Assembly (NCBI GenBank): GCA_964396095.1
Contig: CAYNCK010000075.1
Coordinates: 8,626-72,625, forward strand
Direction of reading: 5' to 3'
Length of the DNA: 64,000 nt
Origin: an uncultured Methanosarcinales archaeon
GTDB lineage: Archaea; Nanobdellota; Nanobdellia; Woesearchaeales; GW2011-AR4
A program made the position numbers and the translations under genes. The notes under the pieces were generated by a model. The model did not search any database. It was given only the letters and a program-made list of their open reading frames with translations, and was not told where the DNA came from. This document shows, piece by piece, positions 12,179 through 54,285 of the stretch. Within the stretch, counting starts at the first letter, position 1. Each line of letters starts with the position of its first letter.

Positions 12179-12934
12179 ATGGAAACAAAAATACTAGAAA
12201 AAATTGGGTTAAGCAAGGCAGAAATAAAAGTTTATCTTGCCCTGTTAGAATTAGGTTCCGTGCCTTCCGGAAAAATAGTAAAGGAAACAGAATTCAGGAA
12301 ATCGACGGTCTATGAAAGCATAAGGAGATTGCAGGAAAAAGGGCTTGCTTCTTATGTAATAAAAGGAGGCATGAAATATTTTGAGGCGGCAGAGCCAAGC
12401 AGGATTATTGAGTTTATACATGAGCAAAAAAGAAAACTTAATGAAACTGAATTAGAAGCAAAAAAATTAATTGTTGATTTAAAAAAGGGGTTTGATATTT
12501 TAAAGCCAAGTGCAGAGGCGCATGTCTTAATTGGAATTGAAGGATTCAAAACAATGAGAAGGGATGTCTTAAGAAATGCAAAGAAAGAATTGCTTCTTAT
12601 CGGCGCAATATCAGGGGAAGACGAAGTGATGAAGGGATTTTTTGAGGAATGGAACAAGTTAAGGCAAAAAAAGAAAATTTACCTGAGAATCCTGCATAAG
12701 GCGAGTGCCAGAGAGAAGGCGATGTCTAAAAAAGAATTTATGGGTAAATATTTTGAAACAAAATTTCTGCCAGAGGAACTGGAAAGCCCTGCAGTCATAA
12801 ACATTTACGGAGACAGAGTTGTAAATCTTGTATGGAAAAAAAACTACCCAATTTGTTTCATGCTGATAAACAAGGAAATCGCCGATGCACACAGAAAGTA
12901 TTTTGAATATTTGTGGAGATTAGCCAGGCCATAA
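12179..12934 (+). CDS. trmB: TrmB-family transcriptional regulator.
   Basis: N-terminal TrmB HTH (LSKAEIKVYLALLELGSVPSGKIVKETEFRKSTVYESIRRLQEKGLASY) plus a C-terminal sensing domain. 251 aa. Confidence 0.75.
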   Translation: METKILEKIGLSKAEIKVYLALLELGSVPSGKIVKETEFRKSTVYESIRRLQEKGLASYVIKGGMKYFEAAEPSRIIEFIHEQKRKLNETELEAKKLIVDLKKGFDILKPSAEAHVLIGIEGFKTMRRDVLRNAKKELLLIGAISGEDEVMKGFFEEWNKLRQKKKIYLRILHKASAREKAMSKKEFMGKYFETKFLPEELESPAVINIYGDRVVNLVWKKNYPICFMLINKEIADAHRKYFEYLWRLARP

Positions 12935-12969
12935 ACATTTATAAACCAATATTCTATATTTATTTGTAT

Positions 12970-14208
12970 ATGGAAAAGTTAATGTTCAAAGGTAAGGTTA
13001 TAGTCATAGGAATAACAGGAGGAATTGCATGCTACAAAGTTCTTGATTTGATAAAAGAACTCAAAAAGCTTGGCTCCAACACCCATGTAATTATGACTGA
13101 GCATGCCACGCATTTTGTTGACATCCAAGAATTTCAAAAGGCAAGTGGAAATGAAGTCCATACAGAATTGTTTCATCCAAAAGTGAACTATAAGGACTAC
13201 TTAAAGAAAAACAAGCCCATAAAGCACATTTCTTTAGCTGACATAACTGATTTATTCTTAATATGCCCTGCGACTGCAAATGTAATTGGTAAAATTGCAA
13301 ACGGGATTGCAGATGACCTGCTGACAACATCCATAACAGCAACAATTGCCCCAGTTTTGATATGCCCTGCAATGAATGTAAAAATGTGGAAAAACCCGAT
13401 TGTGCAGGAGAATGTGAAAAAACTAAGAAGGGCAAATTATCATTTTGTCGAGCCTGAATACGGGGAATTGGCCTGCGGCTACAAAGGTGTCGGAAGGCTT
13501 GCAAACTTAAAAAAAATTACAGATAGAATAATGCTGTTATTAAAGCAAAGAAATGACCTGAAAAATAAAAAAATCCTTGTAACTGCTGGAGCCACATTTG
13601 AGGAGATTGATCCTGTAAGAATCATAACAAACAAAAGCTCTGGAAAGATGGGCACTGCAATTGCAGAGCAAGCTTTTCTAAGGGGTGGTGATGTTTTTTT
13701 ACTGAATGGAAATAATTCAGTGGAGCCTAGTTACAACATCAGCCATGAAAAATTCACAAACGTAAAAGATTTATTCAGTAAAATTAAAAAAATTATAAAA
13801 AAATATGATATAATTATCCATTCTGCTGCGGTTTCTGATTTTGAAATTAATGATAAAATGAATGATAAAATTAAAAGCACCGGGCAGCTTCGCTTGGAAT
13901 TTTCACCTACAGCAAAAATATTTGAAAAATTGAAAAAATTAAACAGCAGGATATTTCTGGTCGGGTTTAAAGCCGAATACAATCTGCCAAAAAATAAGCT
14001 CATAGAAAGTGCATACTGGCTCCTAAAATCCGCAAACGCCGATTTGGTCATTGCAAATGACGTCGGGAAAAAAAATGCCGGGTTTGATGTTGACACAAAT
14101 GAGGTTTTTATTGTAGATAAGGACAAAAATGTTTATAATGTATTTTTATCTGATAAAAAAATTGTTGCAGATAAAATATTGGATGCTATAATAGCAAAAC
14201 TCAAGTAA
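12970..14208 (+). CDS. coaBC: Bifunctional phosphopantothenoylcysteine decarboxylase / phosphopantothenate-cysteine ligase.
   Basis: Flavoprotein domain KGKVIVIGITGGIACYKVLDLIKEL and CoaB domain KKILVTAGATFEEIDPVRIITNKSSGKMG. The start is placed at the internal Met (MEKLMFKGK) to avoid overlapping trmB. Confidence 0.85.
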   Translation: MEKLMFKGKVIVIGITGGIACYKVLDLIKELKKLGSNTHVIMTEHATHFVDIQEFQKASGNEVHTELFHPKVNYKDYLKKNKPIKHISLADITDLFLICPATANVIGKIANGIADDLLTTSITATIAPVLICPAMNVKMWKNPIVQENVKKLRRANYHFVEPEYGELACGYKGVGRLANLKKITDRIMLLLKQRNDLKNKKILVTAGATFEEIDPVRIITNKSSGKMGTAIAEQAFLRGGDVFLLNGNNSVEPSYNISHEKFTNVKDLFSKIKKIIKKYDIIIHSAAVSDFEINDKMNDKIKSTGQLRLEFSPTAKIFEKLKKLNSRIFLVGFKAEYNLPKNKLIESAYWLLKSANADLVIANDVGKKNAGFDVDTNEVFIVDKDKNVYNVFLSDKKIVADKILDAIIAKLK

Positions 14209-14209
14209 A

Positions 14210-15046
14210 ATGAATTCTGCAAAAGCATTTGCACCTGCAAATATAAGCTGCATTTTCGGCATTTACAGCCACAAAAATCCAAGATGGATGGGCTCTTACG
14301 GATTGGGGTTTACTATAAATAAAGGCGTTGTTGCAGAAACATCAAAATCAAAAAAAACAGAGATTTTTTTCAATAATGCCCATATAAATTTCCCGACAGT
14401 TAAAAGCGTAATTAAAAGATTAAACGTTAAAACCATAACCATCAGTATAAAAACTAAACTTCCGCTTGGCTGCGGCTTTGGGCTAAGCGGAGCAAGCGCA
14501 TTGGCAACCGCTTACGCATTGAACAAATTATTAAAACTGAAAAAATCAAATAAGGAATTAGCTATCATAGCCCATACCGCAGAAGTGGAAAACAAAACAG
14601 GATTGGGTGATGTGGTGAATCAATTTTACGGGGGCTGCTGCCTAAAGCTAAGGCCAAGCTCTCATTTTATTGTCAAAAAGCTCCCATTAAATAATGCTGA
14701 TGTTTACTGCAGGCACTTCAGCAAAATATCCACTAAATCAGTAATTACCAATCCTAAGTTAAAAAATAACATCAACAAATCTGCATCAAAATGGCTAAAT
14801 AAAATCGAGATAATGGTAAAATCCCATAAAAATATAAAATTTAAGGAATTAATAGAAATTTCAGGAGGATTTGCAGTTGAAAGCAGACTAATGAAAAATA
14901 AAAGAGTAATAAAAATTATTAAAAGTATCAAAAAAAATAATGGAAATGCCTCAATGATAATGCTCGGCAATGCAGTTTTCAGCGACATGCCATTCAAAGG
15001 CGCAGGTAAATTCAAAATATCAGAAACAGGAGCGCATTTGATATGA
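14210..15046 (+). CDS. GHMP-family kinase, probably archaeal pantoate kinase (PoK).
   Basis: GHMP motif LPLGCGFGLSGASALATAYA. It sits between coaBC and a putative PPS gene in a CoA cluster. Archaea phosphorylate pantoate (COG1829) instead of using PanK. Confidence 0.6.
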   Translation: MNSAKAFAPANISCIFGIYSHKNPRWMGSYGLGFTINKGVVAETSKSKKTEIFFNNAHINFPTVKSVIKRLNVKTITISIKTKLPLGCGFGLSGASALATAYALNKLLKLKKSNKELAIIAHTAEVENKTGLGDVVNQFYGGCCLKLRPSSHFIVKKLPLNNADVYCRHFSKISTKSVITNPKLKNNINKSASKWLNKIEIMVKSHKNIKFKELIEISGGFAVESRLMKNKRVIKIIKSIKKNNGNASMIMLGNAVFSDMPFKGAGKFKISETGAHLI

Positions 15047-15780
15047 ATATTCCTAAATCACATCCAAGGTATGCTTCATTAAAAACAAGGGAATTGGTAG
15101 TTGTTGGAATAAAAGAGGGTGTAACATCAATTGACGGGCTTATTTCGCAGGGAAGGGGCGAAGCATTTGATTATCTTCTCGGGGAAAAAACCAATGATTT
15201 TGCTAAAAAATCAGTTGATAGTTCTGCTGCCCTCTTGCTGTTGGCAAAGCATCCGGTTATTTCAGTAAACGGAAATGCAGCTGCACTGGTCCCAAAAGAG
15301 CTGGCAGAATTGTCAAATATTCTTGATGCGCCTCTGGAAGTTAATATTTTCCATCCATCCTCCCAAAGGGAAATAAAAATAAAAAAATATTTGTTAAAGC
15401 ATGGTGCAAAAAAAATTTTGCTGCAGGACAAAAGATATAAAATAAAACATCTTGAATCAAACAGAAAATACGCCAATCCTGATGGGATTTTAAAGGCTGA
15501 CGTTGTTTTTGTTCCTCTTGAGGACGGTGACCGGGCAGAGGCCCTAATCAAAAATGGAAAAAAAGTCATAACAATAGACTTAAACCCATTGTCAAGGACA
15601 GCGCAAAAATCTACTATAGCAATTGTTGACAATATTATAAGAGCAATGCCGCTGCTGCTAAATCAAATTAAAAAATTCAGGAAATTAAAATTGACGGAAA
15701 AACATCTTGAAGCCATATATAAACATCACAATAACAAAAAAAGGCTTGCATTGGCAGTTAAAGCTATTAAAAAATTATAG
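15043..15780 (+). CDS. Putative 4-phosphopantoate--beta-alanine ligase (archaeal phosphopantothenate synthetase).
   Basis: 245 aa, translationally coupled to the GHMP kinase through a 4-nt overlap. Its size and position fit COG1701 PPS. This call rests on context, not a motif. Confidence 0.5.
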   Translation: MNIPKSHPRYASLKTRELVVVGIKEGVTSIDGLISQGRGEAFDYLLGEKTNDFAKKSVDSSAALLLLAKHPVISVNGNAAALVPKELAELSNILDAPLEVNIFHPSSQREIKIKKYLLKHGAKKILLQDKRYKIKHLESNRKYANPDGILKADVVFVPLEDGDRAEALIKNGKKVITIDLNPLSRTAQKSTIAIVDNIIRAMPLLLNQIKKFRKLKLTEKHLEAIYKHHNNKKRLALAVKAIKKL

Positions 15781-16431
15781 AATATGCCTCAAAATTTCCC
15801 TCAAATCCTTCTTGTCAACTACAACATCGGCAATTTCCTTTAATTCATCGCACCTGCAGTTGAATGCAATCCCCATTCCTGATTCTTCCATAATTTTCAT
15901 GTCGTTAAGGTAATCGCCTATAAAAACACATTCCTTAAGGCTTATTTTTTCCCTTTCAGCAATTTTTCTCAAAGCCAAAGCCTTGCCTTCCATGTCATAC
16001 TCAGTAGCATCAACGCCACTTATTCTTCCATTATTGTCAAAATGAATTCTGCTCAAGAAAACATCGTCAAAATATTCTTCGTAATTTGGGATAAATCTTT
16101 CAAGAACCACGTTTAACGAGCCGGATATGACAGCTAGCTTCAGATTATTTTTTTTTAGCTCATTTAATGTTTCAATAGCACCCTCCATTAATTTCAATTT
16201 GGATAAAGCCTTGAAAAAATCCCCTTTATTAGCGTTGACTTCTTTCCAGAGGTTTATATCATGCTCGGCCCACTGCTTGTAGGTTATTTGCCCGTCAAAA
16301 AACTTTTTTCTGGCATCCTCTCGTTTGTGCACATCAGTCTGGAAATAATCATGAAATACCTGCCAAGAGAACGTGACATTGTCAATCAAGGTACCGTCAA
16401 CATCAAAGCACACAAGCTTGTATTTTCCCAT
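15775..16431 (-). CDS. HAD-superfamily hydrolase, subfamily IB (phosphoserine phosphatase-like).
   Basis: Motif I CFDVDGTLID, motif III K...GD..ND (FIGDYLNDMKIMEESGMGIAFN). Confidence 0.7.
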   Translation of the reverse strand: MGKYKLVCFDVDGTLIDNVTFSWQVFHDYFQTDVHKREDARKKFFDGQITYKQWAEHDINLWKEVNANKGDFFKALSKLKLMEGAIETLNELKKNNLKLAVISGSLNVVLERFIPNYEEYFDDVFLSRIHFDNNGRISGVDATEYDMEGKALALRKIAEREKISLKECVFIGDYLNDMKIMEESGMGIAFNCRCDELKEIADVVVDKKDLREILRHIL

Positions 16432-16474: not shown

Positions 16475-16834
16475 TCACTTGCAGCACTTATGAAACTCAT
16501 CCTTCATTTCGTAAAATAGAACGCAGAATTTCTTGGTTTCAATCTTTACCTCTTTTTGCCCTTTTTTAGTGAGCCTGTATTTTTTCGTCTTGCTGCTGCT
16601 TTTTATTTCCTCTATAAAACCGTTCTCGCTCAGCATCTTAAGCACAGGGTATATTGTTCCAGGGCTTGGCTTTGTTCCCCTTCTTAACTCTATAACTTTC
16701 CTTATTTCATCCCCGGACATGCTCCTTTTGCTTATGAGCTTCAGCACTATAAAGCTCAGAAAACCCTTCATGTCACAGCACTTCTTCATATATGGAATTA
16801 AAAAATGCAGGTTTATATACTTTTCCTGGCGCAT
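16475..16834 (-). CDS. PadR-family transcriptional regulator.
   Basis: Winged HTH region MKGFLSFIVLKLISKRSMSGDEIRKVIELRRGTKPSPGTIYPVLKMLSENGFIEE. The true start is probably the internal Met MKKCC or MKGFL. Confidence 0.75.
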   Translation of the reverse strand: MRQEKYINLHFLIPYMKKCCDMKGFLSFIVLKLISKRSMSGDEIRKVIELRRGTKPSPGTIYPVLKMLSENGFIEEIKSSSKTKKYRLTKKGQKEVKIETKKFCVLFYEMKDEFHKCCK

Positions 16835-16903
16835 ATATCGTAAAACCGATATATTTAAATATTAGCATAATATATCAAATGCCTGAATATCGTAAATCCG
16901 ATA
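16835..16903. promoter_or_regulatory. Two copies of the palindrome ATATCG-taaa(a/t)c-CGATA(T), ~51 bp apart, in the divergent PadR / Cys-rich gene promoter.
   Basis: 16835-16852 reads ATATCGTAAAACCGATAT. 16887-16903 reads ATATCGTAAATCCGATA. Both are dyad-symmetric. Confidence 0.4.
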
Positions 16904-17016
16904 AAGAAATTGGAGGCTAAAACAATGGGAAAAGGAAAAGGCTGCTGTTAACTGGCTTGATTTTTTATTTTTTTATCATAATATATAATTTAAAAACTAA
17001 TGGAGGCTGATTAAGA

Positions 17017-17316
17017 ATGGGAGAAGAATGTAGTGAAGGAAGTTGCTGTGAATCCGAAAAGGAATGCTGCGGCAGCAAAGGCTGCTGCGAAGAAGAAAAA
17101 AGCATGGGCGCAATGATAATGAAGCTGGCGAATGAGGCATGGGACGATTTAATGAAAGAAAAGATGAAATCTTCATATGAAAAAGCAATGGGCTCCAAAA
17201 TGGACAAAGCTGCCCAAATTGGAGTAGAGGCTTGCATTATGTACTGGGGCAATAAGATGAAGGGAAAGGTTGCCTGGGCAGAATTCGAGGAAAAGCTAAG
17301 TAAAGCAATGATGTAG
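17017..17316 (+). CDS. Cys- and Met-rich small protein, a putative metal-binding or sequestering protein (metallothionein-like N-terminus).
   Basis: The N-terminus MGEECSEGSCCESEKECCGSKGCCEEE has 9 Cys in 24 aa. The rest is unusually Met-rich (MGAMIM, LMKEKMK, AMGSKMDK, IMYWGNKMKGK). An 8-codon mini-ORF MGKGKGCC lies upstream at 16925-16951 with a near-identical RBS and start context. Confidence 0.5.
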   Translation: MGEECSEGSCCESEKECCGSKGCCEEEKSMGAMIMKLANEAWDDLMKEKMKSSYEKAMGSKMDKAAQIGVEACIMYWGNKMKGKVAWAEFEEKLSKAMM

Positions 17317-17392
17317 ATAATCTTCAGGTTAGTTTGTCCGGACCGGATTATCCTCTTTATCCGGCCTGCTTGACTTTTAATATTGATGATTT

Positions 17393-17890
17393 ATGGAATA
17401 TGAAACAAGGCTGGAGCGCGCAAAAGCAATTTCTGACATATTCACAATAGTGCAGGACATGGTATCGGAATTTCTTGGAACTGACCAGGCAGGATTGCTT
17501 CTTGGAATGACCGATCTTGGAGAATTCGGAAGCGGATTTTTGGGAGCATTCTATTCCCTTGATGCAAATATGATTATAATAAACAAAAGACCGCTGGGAA
17601 GAATTCTGCAGACAAACCCGAAATTATACAATTATTACCTGTTTCATGTTATTTTGCACGAGTACATTCATTCCATAGGCTCTTTTGATGAGGCACAGGC
17701 AAGGCAGATTGTTTTTGAATTAAGCAATCATTATTTCAGCAAGGGGCATTTAGTTACTCAGCTTGCATCGAACATAGAAAAATTCCTGCCTAACCTCGCA
17801 TATCCTGCTCAGGGATTTCAGCCACCGCAAGATATAAATATAGAGTTCGTGAAGGGAATTGACAGGAAGAATACAAATTATATAGGGTGA
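17393..17890 (+). CDS. Hypothetical protein with an HExxH motif, a putative zinc metallopeptidase-like protein.
   Basis: HVILHEYIHSIG contains H-E-x-x-H. 165 aa, with no other recognisable family features. Confidence 0.45.
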   Translation: MEYETRLERAKAISDIFTIVQDMVSEFLGTDQAGLLLGMTDLGEFGSGFLGAFYSLDANMIIINKRPLGRILQTNPKLYNYYLFHVILHEYIHSIGSFDEAQARQIVFELSNHYFSKGHLVTQLASNIEKFLPNLAYPAQGFQPPQDINIEFVKGIDRKNTNYIG

Positions 17891-17894
17891 TACA

Positions 17895-18464
17895 ATGGAT
17901 TTGCCATGGGGAGATGAAAAAACAGTTCAGTTTATTACAAGCGTTGGCCTTGTGACAAGCAACGGCACTTTTGGCAACAATATAATGGCAGCTGAATGGA
18001 CGCATCATGTTTCTTATAGCCCTGGATTGGTTGCCGTCTGCATTGGGAAAAACAAGGCAACACTTGAAAACATAAGAAATTCAAAGGAGTTTGGAATCGG
18101 CATCTGCGCAACTGACCAGAATGCTCTTTCAAGCATAGCAGGGGGAAGCTCAGGCAAGGATACTGACAAGATAGCTGCACTTAAAGAGCTCGGATTTAAA
18201 TTCTACAAGGCAAATAAAATAAATGTTTTGATGGTTGAGGGTTCTGTTTTAAACATTGAATGCCGGCTTTACAGGGATATTGAACTTGGCGACCATGTGA
18301 TGCTTGTAGGCGAAGTCGTTGATTCAAGATTAAGCAAAAATAAAGAGCCCCTTGCATATCATAAATTAAAATACTGGAAGCTTGGAGAAAATATTCCAAA
18401 GCCGCAGGCGCAGGAGCTTGAAAAAATAAAAAAAATAGTTGAAAAGCACAGAAAGGTTAAATAA
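17895..18464 (+). CDS. Flavin reductase-like (FMN-binding split-barrel) domain protein.
   Basis: VGLVTSNGTFGNNIMAAEWTHHVSYSPGLVAVCIGKNKATLENIRNSKEFGI matches the flavin_reduct domain. Confidence 0.75.
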   Translation: MDLPWGDEKTVQFITSVGLVTSNGTFGNNIMAAEWTHHVSYSPGLVAVCIGKNKATLENIRNSKEFGIGICATDQNALSSIAGGSSGKDTDKIAALKELGFKFYKANKINVLMVEGSVLNIECRLYRDIELGDHVMLVGEVVDSRLSKNKEPLAYHKLKYWKLGENIPKPQAQELEKIKKIVEKHRKVK

Positions 18465-52902: not shown

Positions 52903-54285
52903 CTACTCTCCCTTGTAGTATTTCTTCTTAAGCTCGGGGCTTATTCTTGTCAGCTCATTTTCAGGCAGTATGCCCAGCAATTTCCATCCAAGGTCAAGTG
53001 TTTCTGCTATGCTCCTGTCCTCTTCCCTTTTCTGCCTTACAAACTTATCCTCGAATTCGGCGGCAAATTTGAGCAGTTTCTTGTCCCTGTCGCTCAATGC
53101 TTCCTCGCCGACAATTGCAACCAATCCTCTCATGTCCCTTCCTTCAGCGTAAGCAGCATACATCTGATCGCTTACTTGCTTATGATCTTCCCTTGTCTTT
53201 TCTTTTCCGATTCCAAGATTCATCAGCCTTGACAATGACGGCAAGACATCAATGCTCGGATAAATTCCTTTTCTGTGCAATTCCCTTGAAAGCACAATCT
53301 GCCCTTCTGTAATATATCCTGTCAAATCAGGAATGGGGTGTGTTATGTCGTCTCCAACCATCGTCAGAATCGGGATTTGTGTAACGCTCCCTTTCTTTCC
53401 TTTTATGACGCCGGCCCTTTCGTAAATCGTTGCAAGGTCTGTGTACATATAACCGGGATATCCTCTTCTTCCGGGAATTTCTTCCCTTGCAGCGCCAATC
53501 TCCCTCAATGATTCGCAATAATTTGTCATATCCGTTAAAATGACAAGTACATGTGCGTCATGCTCATACGCAAAATATTCGGCGGCAGTCAATGCCATTC
53601 TGGGTGTCACCAATCTTTCAACAGCAGGGTCATTTGCAAGGTTCAAAAAAACTACACTCCTTTCCAAAGCCCCTGTCTGCTCAAAATCGCTCATGAAGTA
53701 TTGTGCTTCCTCATTTGTGATGCCCATAGCTGCAAATATAACTACAAAATTTTCCTGCTTTCCAATGACTTTTGCCTGTCGCGCAATTTGAAGCGCAATC
53801 TCGCTGTGTGTGAGTCCAGAACCCGAAAATATAGGCAGCTTTTGCCCCCTGACTAGTGTGTTCATTGCATCAATTGTAGAAACTCCTGTCTGGATAAAAT
53901 CGTGCGGGGATGCCCTCGAAAAAGGATTGATTGCAGCTCCTATAATATCTAATCTTTTTTCAGGAATAATTTCTGAGCCGCCGTCAATCGGCTTGCCGCT
54001 TCCGTTTAAAACTCTCCCAAGCATGTCTTTTGAGACATTCAGCTTTAATGTATCGCCAAGAAATTTTACTCTGCTCTCGACATCAATTCCCGATGTTCCC
54101 TCAAATATCTGCACTACAACAATGTCATCGCTTGTGTCCAGTACCTGCCCGTTTTTTACATCGCCGTTTGACAATGCAATCTTAACTATGTCAGCATAGC
54201 CTACAGGCTCCGTCTTCTCGACAAAAATCAAAGGCCCCTTAATTTGTGTTATTGTCTTGTATTCCTTCATTGTAATCACTCTCAA
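52903..54285 (-). CDS. atpB: A-type ATP synthase subunit B (non-catalytic).
   Basis: 460 aa. Typical A/V-type B subunit sequence ([32 protein letters not shown]). Confidence 0.9.

Follow-up and report, generated by a model that had tools for sequence, protein, structure and literature searches.

A PadR-family gene, putative palindromic operators and a cysteine-rich protein operon conserved in Woesearchaeota and Nanoarchaeota

What does a small regulator respond to when its gene stands back to back with a gene for a cysteine-rich protein? This question is raised by a 64,000-nucleotide stretch of DNA (the window; contig CAYNCK010000075.1 of assembly GCA_964396095.1) from an archaeon of the Woesearchaeales, in which a PadR-family gene diverges from a gene for a cysteine-rich protein of 99 amino acids (aa). 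A preliminary description had proposed that a PadR regulator, a metallothionein-like gene and the twin palindromic operators between them form a metal-responsive module. The expected dyads, mini open reading frame (mini-ORF), hairpin, PadR gene and 99-aa Cys/Met-rich ORF are all present in the sequence. Scans of genomes and metagenomes gave at least 9 and at least 12 loci, respectively, and their comparison indicates that the module layout is real and widely conserved across Woesearchaeota/Nanoarchaeota (DPANN). The loci derive from groundwater, sampled at Hainich and in other aquifers. The PadR gene divergently adjoins the Cys-rich gene in loci L001, L005-8, L010, L012, L013, L021, L024 and L035-41, and the divergent pair is kept in at least ten lineages. 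PadR very probably controls the divergent operon. Judged by its gene neighbours, the module fits thiol, electrophile or redox stress no less well than metal stress, and a metal-specific role is possible. We lean, with restraint, towards the explanation that a thiol-sensing PadR represses a thiol-stress operon that begins with the gene for a thiol-rich sink. A literature search on PadR with metallothionein, cysteine-rich protein or nitroreductase/rhodanese found no earlier description.

The PadR regulator and its putative operators

The features of the divergent promoter region are as follows (BRE, B recognition element).

16475–16789, minus strand: PadR-family repressor, 104 aa (subfamily-2 size); Pfam PadR E 4.8e-13, six aligned 104-aa orthologues.
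16812–16829, minus strand: putative promoter of the PadR gene, TATATAAA (16812–16820) with a purine-rich BRE (16821–29), assigned by the archaeal BRE/TATA consensus.
16835–16852, unstranded: dyad A, putative operator of 18 bp, ATATCG-N6-CGATAT, ATATCGTAAAACCGATAT.
16853–16865, plus strand: TATA box ATTTAAATATTAG of promoter P1 of the Cys-rich operon, nearly identical across lineages.
16865–16882, unstranded: dyad B, the degenerate remnant of an ancestral operator 30 bp from dyad A, in the interval between TATA box and start site.
16887–16904, unstranded: dyad C, putative operator with one mismatch, ATATCGTAAATCCGATAA, separated from dyad A by 52 bp and covering about +2 to +19 of P1.

The PadR-family ORF is found on the minus strand at 16475–16834, as had been described, and matches Pfam PF03551 with 49.3 bits at a threshold of 27. 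Its 5' end, placed at 16834 and thus reaching dyad A, had to be revised. The orthologues are all 103–104 aa long and begin with MK(E/K)CC(D/E)MKGF, and the extra 15 codons of the window ORF have no counterpart in them. The centre of the PadR TATA box lies 27 nt from the ATG at 16789, and an equivalent promoter element stands at equal distance in L001, L005, L010, L012 and L013 (six lineages with the window). From the lengths and starts of the orthologues and from this BRE/TATA element, the true start is almost certainly M16 of the ORF, at position 16789, giving a leaderless gene for 104 aa. Because the TATA box is 27 nt from the ATG, the PadR mRNA would be leaderless and begin at 16789. The public record appears to give the window PadR as a protein of 119 aa (P0203); the annotated start, with the 16790–16834 extension, is probably wrong.

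The length of the orthologues and the single C-terminal helix beyond the winged helix-turn-helix are those of PadR subfamily 2 (PadR-s2). The closest solved structures are the PadR-s2 proteins 3hhh, 3l7w, 5dym and 4esb, and these do not have the conserved cysteines of the window PadR. A search with this PadR gave 1120 matches at E≤1e-5, the best 120 of which are 63–82% identical. Among the best 120 homologues and the reference, C4 is present in 111 sequences, C5 in 114 and C89 in 120; most of these aligned PadRs also have a C-terminal Cys at position 102/103. A conserved N-terminal Cys, as in thiol repressors, is found in 111–114 of those aligned homologues whose N-terminus is present. C4 and C5 lie just ahead of helix alpha1, and C89 lies on the dimerisation helix, where it aligns beside the conserved Trp which binds ligand in LmrR. 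In PadR-s2 dimers, helix alpha4 packs against alpha4' and alpha1' of the partner (PMC3506622). Because of this packing, the N-terminal CC could meet C89 and the C-terminal Cys at the dimer interface. We infer that this cysteine cluster is the sensor site. A PadR subfamily with conserved cysteines is new; the repressor family and its general logic are of already known kinds.

In general build, the regulator resembles LmrR, bcPadR1/2 of B. cereus, 3HHH and 4ESB, which are winged-helix proteins of about 104–116 aa with one C-terminal dimerisation helix. A palindromic operator of about 16–18 bp at the promoter of an adjacent stress or detoxification gene, here predicted, is a further likeness (PMC3506622). 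The differences lie in the operator, which is ATATCG-N6-CGATAT here and ATGT-N8-ACAT there, in the near-invariant C4, C5 and C89 and the usual C-terminal Cys (C89 being next to the ligand-Trp position of LmrR), and in the archaeal promoter logic, BRE/TATA occlusion. The window PadR gives a weak NCBIfam match to an Rv3488-type entry. To our knowledge, no thiol- or metal-sensing PadR is established, Rv3488 with Cd being a weak precedent.

The twin dyads of the preliminary description are present, at a spacing of 52 bp and not ~51. They are the only two matches of the dyad pattern in the 64 kb, where 0.08 are expected by chance; two matches were obtained in 0 of 100 shuffles. The palindromes lie between the PadR gene and the real Cys-rich gene, as had been stated, and are conserved together with the pair. 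The dyads accompany PadR at all PadR-linked loci; its binding to them is predicted. Dyad A occurs in every one of these loci, always immediately 5' of the plus-strand TATA box, and in the window its right half overlaps the BRE position of P1. A second dyad stands 30, 43 or 52 bp off in most PadR-linked loci and is degenerate in L001 and L005. The ancestral arrangement, as the comparison shows, is dyad A, TATA box (TTTAAATAT) and dyad B, the two dyads being 30 bp apart; L012, L013, L021, L023, L024 and L039 have it (dyad B is full in L013, L023, L024 and L039, and near-full in L012 and L021). In the window, L010 and L011, dyad B has decayed (in L010 to a near-full dyad) and there is an additional dyad C at +52; L038 has its second dyad at +43. 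Dyads B and C span the region from the TATA box to the start site of P1, predicted near 16884. Both promoter readings, including the assignment of the PadR promoter, are based on the archaeal BRE/TATA consensus. The placements of dyads A, B and C are classic archaeal repressor positions. Dyad A is ~46 bp upstream of the PadR start at 16789 and does not abut the start codon. A sigma-70 promoter scan was uninformative, the host being an archaeon. At L009 (1180–1300), dyad A is severed midway; the upstream part is unrelated and without PadR, and the downstream part is identical to L010. Either a rearrangement has its breakpoint within the operator here, or the assembly is chimeric.

The cysteine-rich protein and its operon partners

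Three genes follow P1 on the plus strand (SD, Shine–Dalgarno sequence).

17002–17316, plus strand: SD (17002–06) and the 99-aa Cys-rich protein (17017–17316), with the start MGEECSEGSCCESEKECCGSKGCC.
17393–17890, plus strand: 165-aa protein with the HEYIH (HExxH) motif, a recurrent second operon gene.
17895–18464, plus strand: flavin reductase-like protein, the third operon gene (Pfam Flavin_Reduct, 3.1e-30).

The 99-aa Cys/Met-rich ORF is where it had been reported, on the plus strand at 17017–17316, and it proved to be conserved in related genomes: we found seven close homologues, and 255 clusters by profile search. Since homologues abound in Woesearchaeota/Nanoarchaeota and in the wider clusters, the ORF cannot be dismissed as unconserved. 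The close homologues are 56–80% identical and come from Woesearchaeota/Nanoarchaeota metagenome-assembled genomes (MAGs) and from metagenomes. Searching 1.84 billion cluster representatives with the profile, we obtained the 255 at E≤1e-3 and 63 at E≤1e-10; the family reaches Micrarchaeota and a bacterial (Desulfobulbus) MAG. No Pfam, NCBIfam or PDB sequence match was found for the window protein and 47 diverse relatives, Foldseek found nothing significant in PDB for the model of the 99-aa protein, and every named database homologue is called 'hypothetical protein'. Judged by these searches, the 99-aa protein founds an unannotated family.

The number of cysteines turned out to be lower than described. 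The first 27 residues had been credited with nine Cys; the tail holds seven (C5, 10, 11, 17, 18, 23, 24), and C73 makes eight. C5, CC10-11, CC17-18, C24 and C73 are invariant among the close homologues, in which the C-terminal domain is strongly conserved; across the wider family C73 is unconserved. In the AF2 model (47 sequences), residues 1–25 are disordered and helices extend over 30–79 and 85–98, residues 30–98 being predicted helical with a pLDDT (predicted local distance difference test) of 75–94. The family-wide core reads (L/M)A..AW..LMKEKMK...EK..G.KMDK.A...VEA...YW..KM. A41, W42, K49 and G59 are invariant across the family and W77 is nearly so; Tyr and Phe are also present. The Met-packed remainder of the preliminary description does exist (11 Met in residues 30–99), but thioether ligation by it is unsupported: the Met positions are frequently Leu or Ile in relatives, so these residues look like parts of a helix core and not like dedicated ligands. 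The Met/Lys-rich helical domain probably oligomerises.

The tail varies from 0 to 63 aa across the family. Pooled tails contain 19.8% Cys, 15% Glu, 12% Gly and 11.8% Ser, and the Cys motifs in them are CC (160), CxxxC (76), CxC (71) and CxxC (14). At least three tail His are found in 15 of 126 members, and about 20 of the 126 have a tail without Cys or no tail. Metal binding by tails with CC, CxC and His is chemically plausible. The name metallothionein-like gene is too wide, however. Metallothioneins are small proteins with about 15–30% Cys over their whole length, few aromatic residues and no regular secondary structure in the absence of metal, and here there are 8 Cys in 99 aa, a helical region at 30–98 and aromatic residues; no homology to a metallothionein family was detected in the Pfam, NCBIfam and PDB sequence comparisons of the window protein and, for the first two, its 47 relatives. 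Because the metallothionein-like portion is confined to the 24-aa tail and is followed by a conserved, aromatic-bearing helical domain of ~70 aa, the protein is best described, from its sequence, as a metallothionein-like tail on a novel helical domain and not as a metallothionein.

Two unusual loci touch this family. In L038 (2735–2875, minus strand), the slot of the Cys-rich gene holds a 46-aa protein that begins with METCGCYG and continues into a helical region; the dyads stand before its gene, and the CCCUCUU hairpin and a nitroreductase gene after it. We rejected this protein as a family member: hhalign shows no relation, and there is no Pfam match, DUF5320 included. In L027 (2402–2749) and L028 (183–530), which come from two samples, the reading frame of a family member is interrupted by TAG at the site of a CAG (Gln) codon in L025. 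Stop-codon recoding was rejected as well, this being a single CAG-to-TAG change without other support; most simply, it is a nonsense allele or a pseudogene.

In the PadR clade, the small Cys-rich gene is always the first in the operon. The 165-aa HEYIH ORF has no Pfam or NCBIfam family; HExxH proteins of 165–188 aa are encoded in the operons of the window, L001, L010, L024 and L039. The homologue in L039 matches Zincin_1, though only weakly (E 0.063). The 165-aa protein may be an undescribed minimal zincin. Flavin reductase is found in the window and in L001, with equal gene order. The other operons encode nitroreductase (L005, L012, L013, L021, L023, L038), rhodanese (L023, L038, L039), VKOR (L012) and a LUD-domain protein (L039). 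Outside the PadR clade, two unrelated lineages (L025, L034) pair the family with a divergent HxlR regulator bearing N-terminal CCP/CxCP, and a glyoxalase-family enzyme is also encoded at L034. Three Micrarchaeota-type loci have SufU and SufS within 0.3–1.5 kb, L030 has a PALP (cysteine-synthase-like) enzyme upstream, and the neighbourhoods of L032 and L033 are uninformative. No gene for a metal transporter, an efflux pump, a CopZ-like protein or a classical metal sensor was found in ~15 loci.

On the PadR side, an HAD/PSPase-like hydrolase gene (15775–16431) lies 43 nt downstream of the PadR gene on the same strand, and the two may be co-transcribed. Just before the hydrolase gene, at lower coordinates, stands a trio of genes for CoA biosynthesis: CoaBC (12913–14208), which consumes cysteine, pantoate kinase (14210–15046) and phosphopantothenate synthetase (15043–15780). 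Synteny with the PadR module extends to the hydrolase gene in L001, L005, L012, L013, L021, L024 and L039, and to the CoA genes in L001, L005 and L039. The two ends of the L025/L026 contig Ga0209542_10000107 (208,526 bp) are inverted copies of each other, without a difference for 3.7 kb or more, and the repeated end bears the HxlR regulator divergent from the Cys-rich family member. These ends are either an inverted terminal repeat or an assembly artefact.

RNA elements before and after the first gene

Three further features belong to the predicted transcript from P1.

16912–16951, plus strand: leader cassette of SD GGAGG (16912–16) and mini-ORF MGKGKGCC* (16925–16951), kept in five lineages.
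16961–16974, plus strand: oligo-T tracts (T6 A T7), a candidate archaeal termination or attenuation site.
17334–17374, plus strand: conserved RNA hairpin with the loop UAUCCUCUUU and the core stem 17343–48/17359–64.

The hairpin CCGGAT-N10-ATCCGG had been noticed before; it is present, at 17343–17364 rather than 17330–17360. In the window and 12 of the searched loci, it occurs once per locus and always just 3' of the first gene, whichever gene follows; it is absent in L005 and L023. The stems are wholly different from one lineage to the next, with the loop kept as (A)CCCUCUU(U). In an alignment of nine sequences, 82.5% of cells are paired versus 36–47% in slid controls, and seven pairs show compensatory changes. 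The covariation score is 0.41 versus 0.06–0.14 in the controls, and was reached by none of 500 shuffles. With a covariance model, the hairpin was found at this position only in 200 kb, the sense strand scoring 32–53 bits and the antisense strand ~21. Nothing above noise was found for it in Rfam. It is not an intrinsic terminator, as there is no trailing T-run. It is not a repeat either: the one similar site, 53452–53475, is coding sequence of the V-ATPase B subunit, and the covariance model showed no second copy in the 200 kb. The loop includes an anti-SD-like CCUC. A stabiliser of the mRNA 3' end, a partial terminator and a protein-binding site are candidates for its role.

The eight-codon mini-ORF MGKGKGCC and its SD stand where they had been described. 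SD-led relatives are found in L010 (MGKNKGGCC*), L023 (MGKEKGCC*), L013 (MVSKGKEKGCC*) and L024 (MEQGKGNCGC*). Thus, in five lineages an upstream ORF of 8–11 codons ends in CC or CGC. The Cys codons vary synonymously (TGC TGT versus TGT TGC), and the changes in length preserve the frame. Wherever the cassette is present (five lineages), at least two oligo-T runs follow the stop of the mini-ORF, and then the SD of the main gene; the oligo-U tracts lie within 9–25 nt after the mini-ORF. The cassette is missing in L001, L005, L012/L021 and L039. The mini-ORF may derive from a partial duplication, because its start resembles that of the main gene, and its retention suggests a function. Minimum free energy folds of the five leaders gave no common helix, and only the oligo-U tracts after the stop are conserved. 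A leader of the mycobacterial type that sequesters the ribosome-binding site (RBS) is unsupported, as the five leaders share no helix. In L024 (1755–1810), and in this lineage only, the T-tracts are separated from the main gene's real SD by an additional strong hairpin, GGAGGCAGC...GCTGGCCTCC, in which a duplicate SD-like GGAGG is sequestered. The CCCUCUU-loop hairpin and the Cys-terminated leader are new.

Polycysteine leader ORFs of mycobacteria are cysteine-responsive attenuators (10.1101/834739). The window leader resembles them as a short upstream ORF with consecutive Cys codons before a regulated gene. It differs in having two Cys codons only, in being SD-led and archaeal (the mycobacterial ones are leaderless), and in the presence of oligo-U tracts in place of a conserved RBS-sequestering helix, which was not found here; moreover, the downstream gene consumes cysteine here and makes it there. 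Very tentatively, and at long odds in our own judgement, we suggest that the mini-ORF and the U-tracts form an archaeal ribosome-mediated transcription attenuator, stacked on PadR as a new class of thiol- or Fe-S-sensing repressor and on a new hairpin RNA that partitions expression inside the operon. When Cys-tRNA is short, the leading ribosome would stall at the Cys codons and uncouple from the RNA polymerase, which would then stop at the U-tracts. Production of the Cys-costly protein would in this way be restricted to times of sufficient cysteine.

What the module may respond to

In the explanation that we favour, the 104-aa PadR-s2 would be made from its own leaderless promoter and bind the 18-bp dyads. 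The dyads bracket the BRE/TATA and cover the start site, where PadR would block TFB/TBP or the RNA polymerase. Modification of the cysteine cluster (by oxidation, alkylation or persulfidation, or by a thiophilic metal or an Fe-S cluster being gained or lost) would free the DNA. The disordered tail (~20–30% Cys) of the soluble first product would act as a sacrificial or buffering thiol sink for electrophiles, oxidants and soft metals, and the downstream enzymes (flavin reductase here; nitroreductase, rhodanese and VKOR in relatives) would detoxify the stressor or re-reduce thiols. In this lineage, the Cys-Cys leader ORF and oligo-U may tie read-through to the supply of Cys-tRNA. How much small protein is made relative to the downstream enzymes probably depends on the hairpin behind the first gene.

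The closest parallels of this kind are YodB/QsrR/HypR (HxlR/DUF24) and OxsR, small winged-helix repressors with a conserved N-terminal Cys. The YodB and QsrR regulons include nitroreductase, flavin-dependent reductases and glyoxalase/dioxygenase. Genes of this type are found here too: flavin reductase, nitroreductase in six lineages and glyoxalase at L034, as in electrophile/oxidant regulons. A thiol-based winged-helix regulator, OxsR, is known in archaea (PMC9426492). Distant members of the Cys-rich family adjoin true HxlR regulators. The regulator in the window belongs to PadR and carries about four Cys, where the HxlR-type proteins have one or two. It is not a member of HxlR/DUF24, and HxlR accompanies the family in L025 and L034 only. 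Furthermore, the operon is headed by a Cys-rich small protein, which the YodB, QsrR, HypR and OxsR regulons do not have.

Several observations weigh against this explanation. Among the tail motifs, the one that is usually redox-active, CxxC, is scarce (14, versus 160 CC and 71 CxC), and some tails are His-rich; both lean to metal binding. The main caveat is that the conserved PadR cysteines could be a structural Zn site instead of a sensor. The operon has no gene for thioredoxin, peroxiredoxin or methionine sulfoxide reductase, and the contexts without PadR are heterogeneous (SufS/SufU, the PALP enzyme, TrmB, or uninformative). The distance from dyad A to the PadR gene's own promoter varies, being ~46 bp in the window and ~72 bp in L001; therefore, the operators belong to the Cys-rich operon, and autoregulation of PadR is uncertain. 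In addition, the binding of PadR to DNA and the signal that it senses are themselves predictions.

The metal-responsive module of the preliminary description, in which PadR would sense Cu(I), Zn or Cd and the 99-aa protein would be a metallothionein-like store or metallochaperone with a Cys tail and Met, is possible, though we regard it as rather unlikely. Its layout recalls bacterial metallothioneins and their repressors (SmtA/SmtB, NmtA/AzuR (PMC8790569) and MymT), in which the repressor gene diverges from a Cys-rich gene. The dominance of CC and CxC over CxxC in the tails is metallothionein-like, the His-containing members suggest that Cys and His are interchangeable, and about four Cys per PadR subunit would make a plausible metal site. 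The acidic disordered tails, CC/CxC-rich and sometimes with His, also resemble those of the metallochaperones HypB (CxxCGC) and CooJ and of Hpn, and the Flavin_Reduct family includes archaeal ferric reductase. Metal binding by the tail would therefore be plausible chemistry; the metal-responsive module as such is not borne out by the surroundings, since no transporter, efflux pump, CopZ-like gene or known metal sensor is near in ~15 loci. Nor is the regulator an ArsR/SmtB protein, and the small protein differs from metallothioneins in homology, in the restriction of Cys to the tail and in its 70-aa helical domain with aromatics, which makes up two thirds of it. Its Met positions are freely Leu/Ile, ~20 of 126 members lack tail Cys or the tail, and the partner enzymes and HxlR regulators are typical of electrophile/oxidant regulons.

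Homeostasis of cysteine, sulfur or Fe-S seems to us improbable. The small protein would then store or pass on cysteine sulfur, for instance by carrying persulfide, by scaffolding Fe-S or as a sink for cysteine; PadR would sense sulfane sulfur or hold Fe-S, and the leader would couple the operon to cysteine. The rhodanese in operons of three lineages, the PALP enzyme of L030, the cysteine-consuming CoaBC in the conserved neighbourhood and the two Cys codons that end the leader ORF in five lineages agree with this, as do the nearby SufU/SufS genes of the three Micrarchaeota-type loci; yet SufS/SufU are convergent with the family member, not co-oriented, and are limited to one clade. None of nitroreductase, flavin reductase and VKOR is an enzyme of sulfur trafficking, neither CxxC nor a Cys spacing of the Fe-S type is conserved, and the length and Cys number of the tail vary widely. 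Less probable still is a regulatory partner, a small protein that, as co-sensor or anti-repressor, would bind PadR through its helical domain and receive the signal with its Cys tail. In each case the small gene is the nearest to PadR and the first after the operators, the Lys-rich amphipathic helices of its product suit the binding of protein or nucleic acid, and in L038 the unrelated 46-aa protein (N-terminal CGC and a helix) fills the same slot. However, the family is widespread without PadR (with HxlR or other neighbours, in Micrarchaeota and in the Desulfobulbus MAG), and the high expression expected from the strong SD, the first place in the operon and the hairpin that follows better suits an abundant effector.

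The genomes of DPANN archaea are tiny, and hardly any of their regulation has been characterised. This locus brings together, in compact form, a highly conserved repressor subfamily (more than 1000 homologues), an operator that is defined, a family of thiol-rich proteins not described before and two candidate controls at the RNA level. If the protein binds metal, its family would be a first well-defined metallothionein-like one in archaea. Should the leader work in the way suggested, it would count among the early examples of attenuation by amino-acid sensing in Archaea. Were the cysteine cluster the sensor, PadR would be added to the families that sense thiol chemistry.

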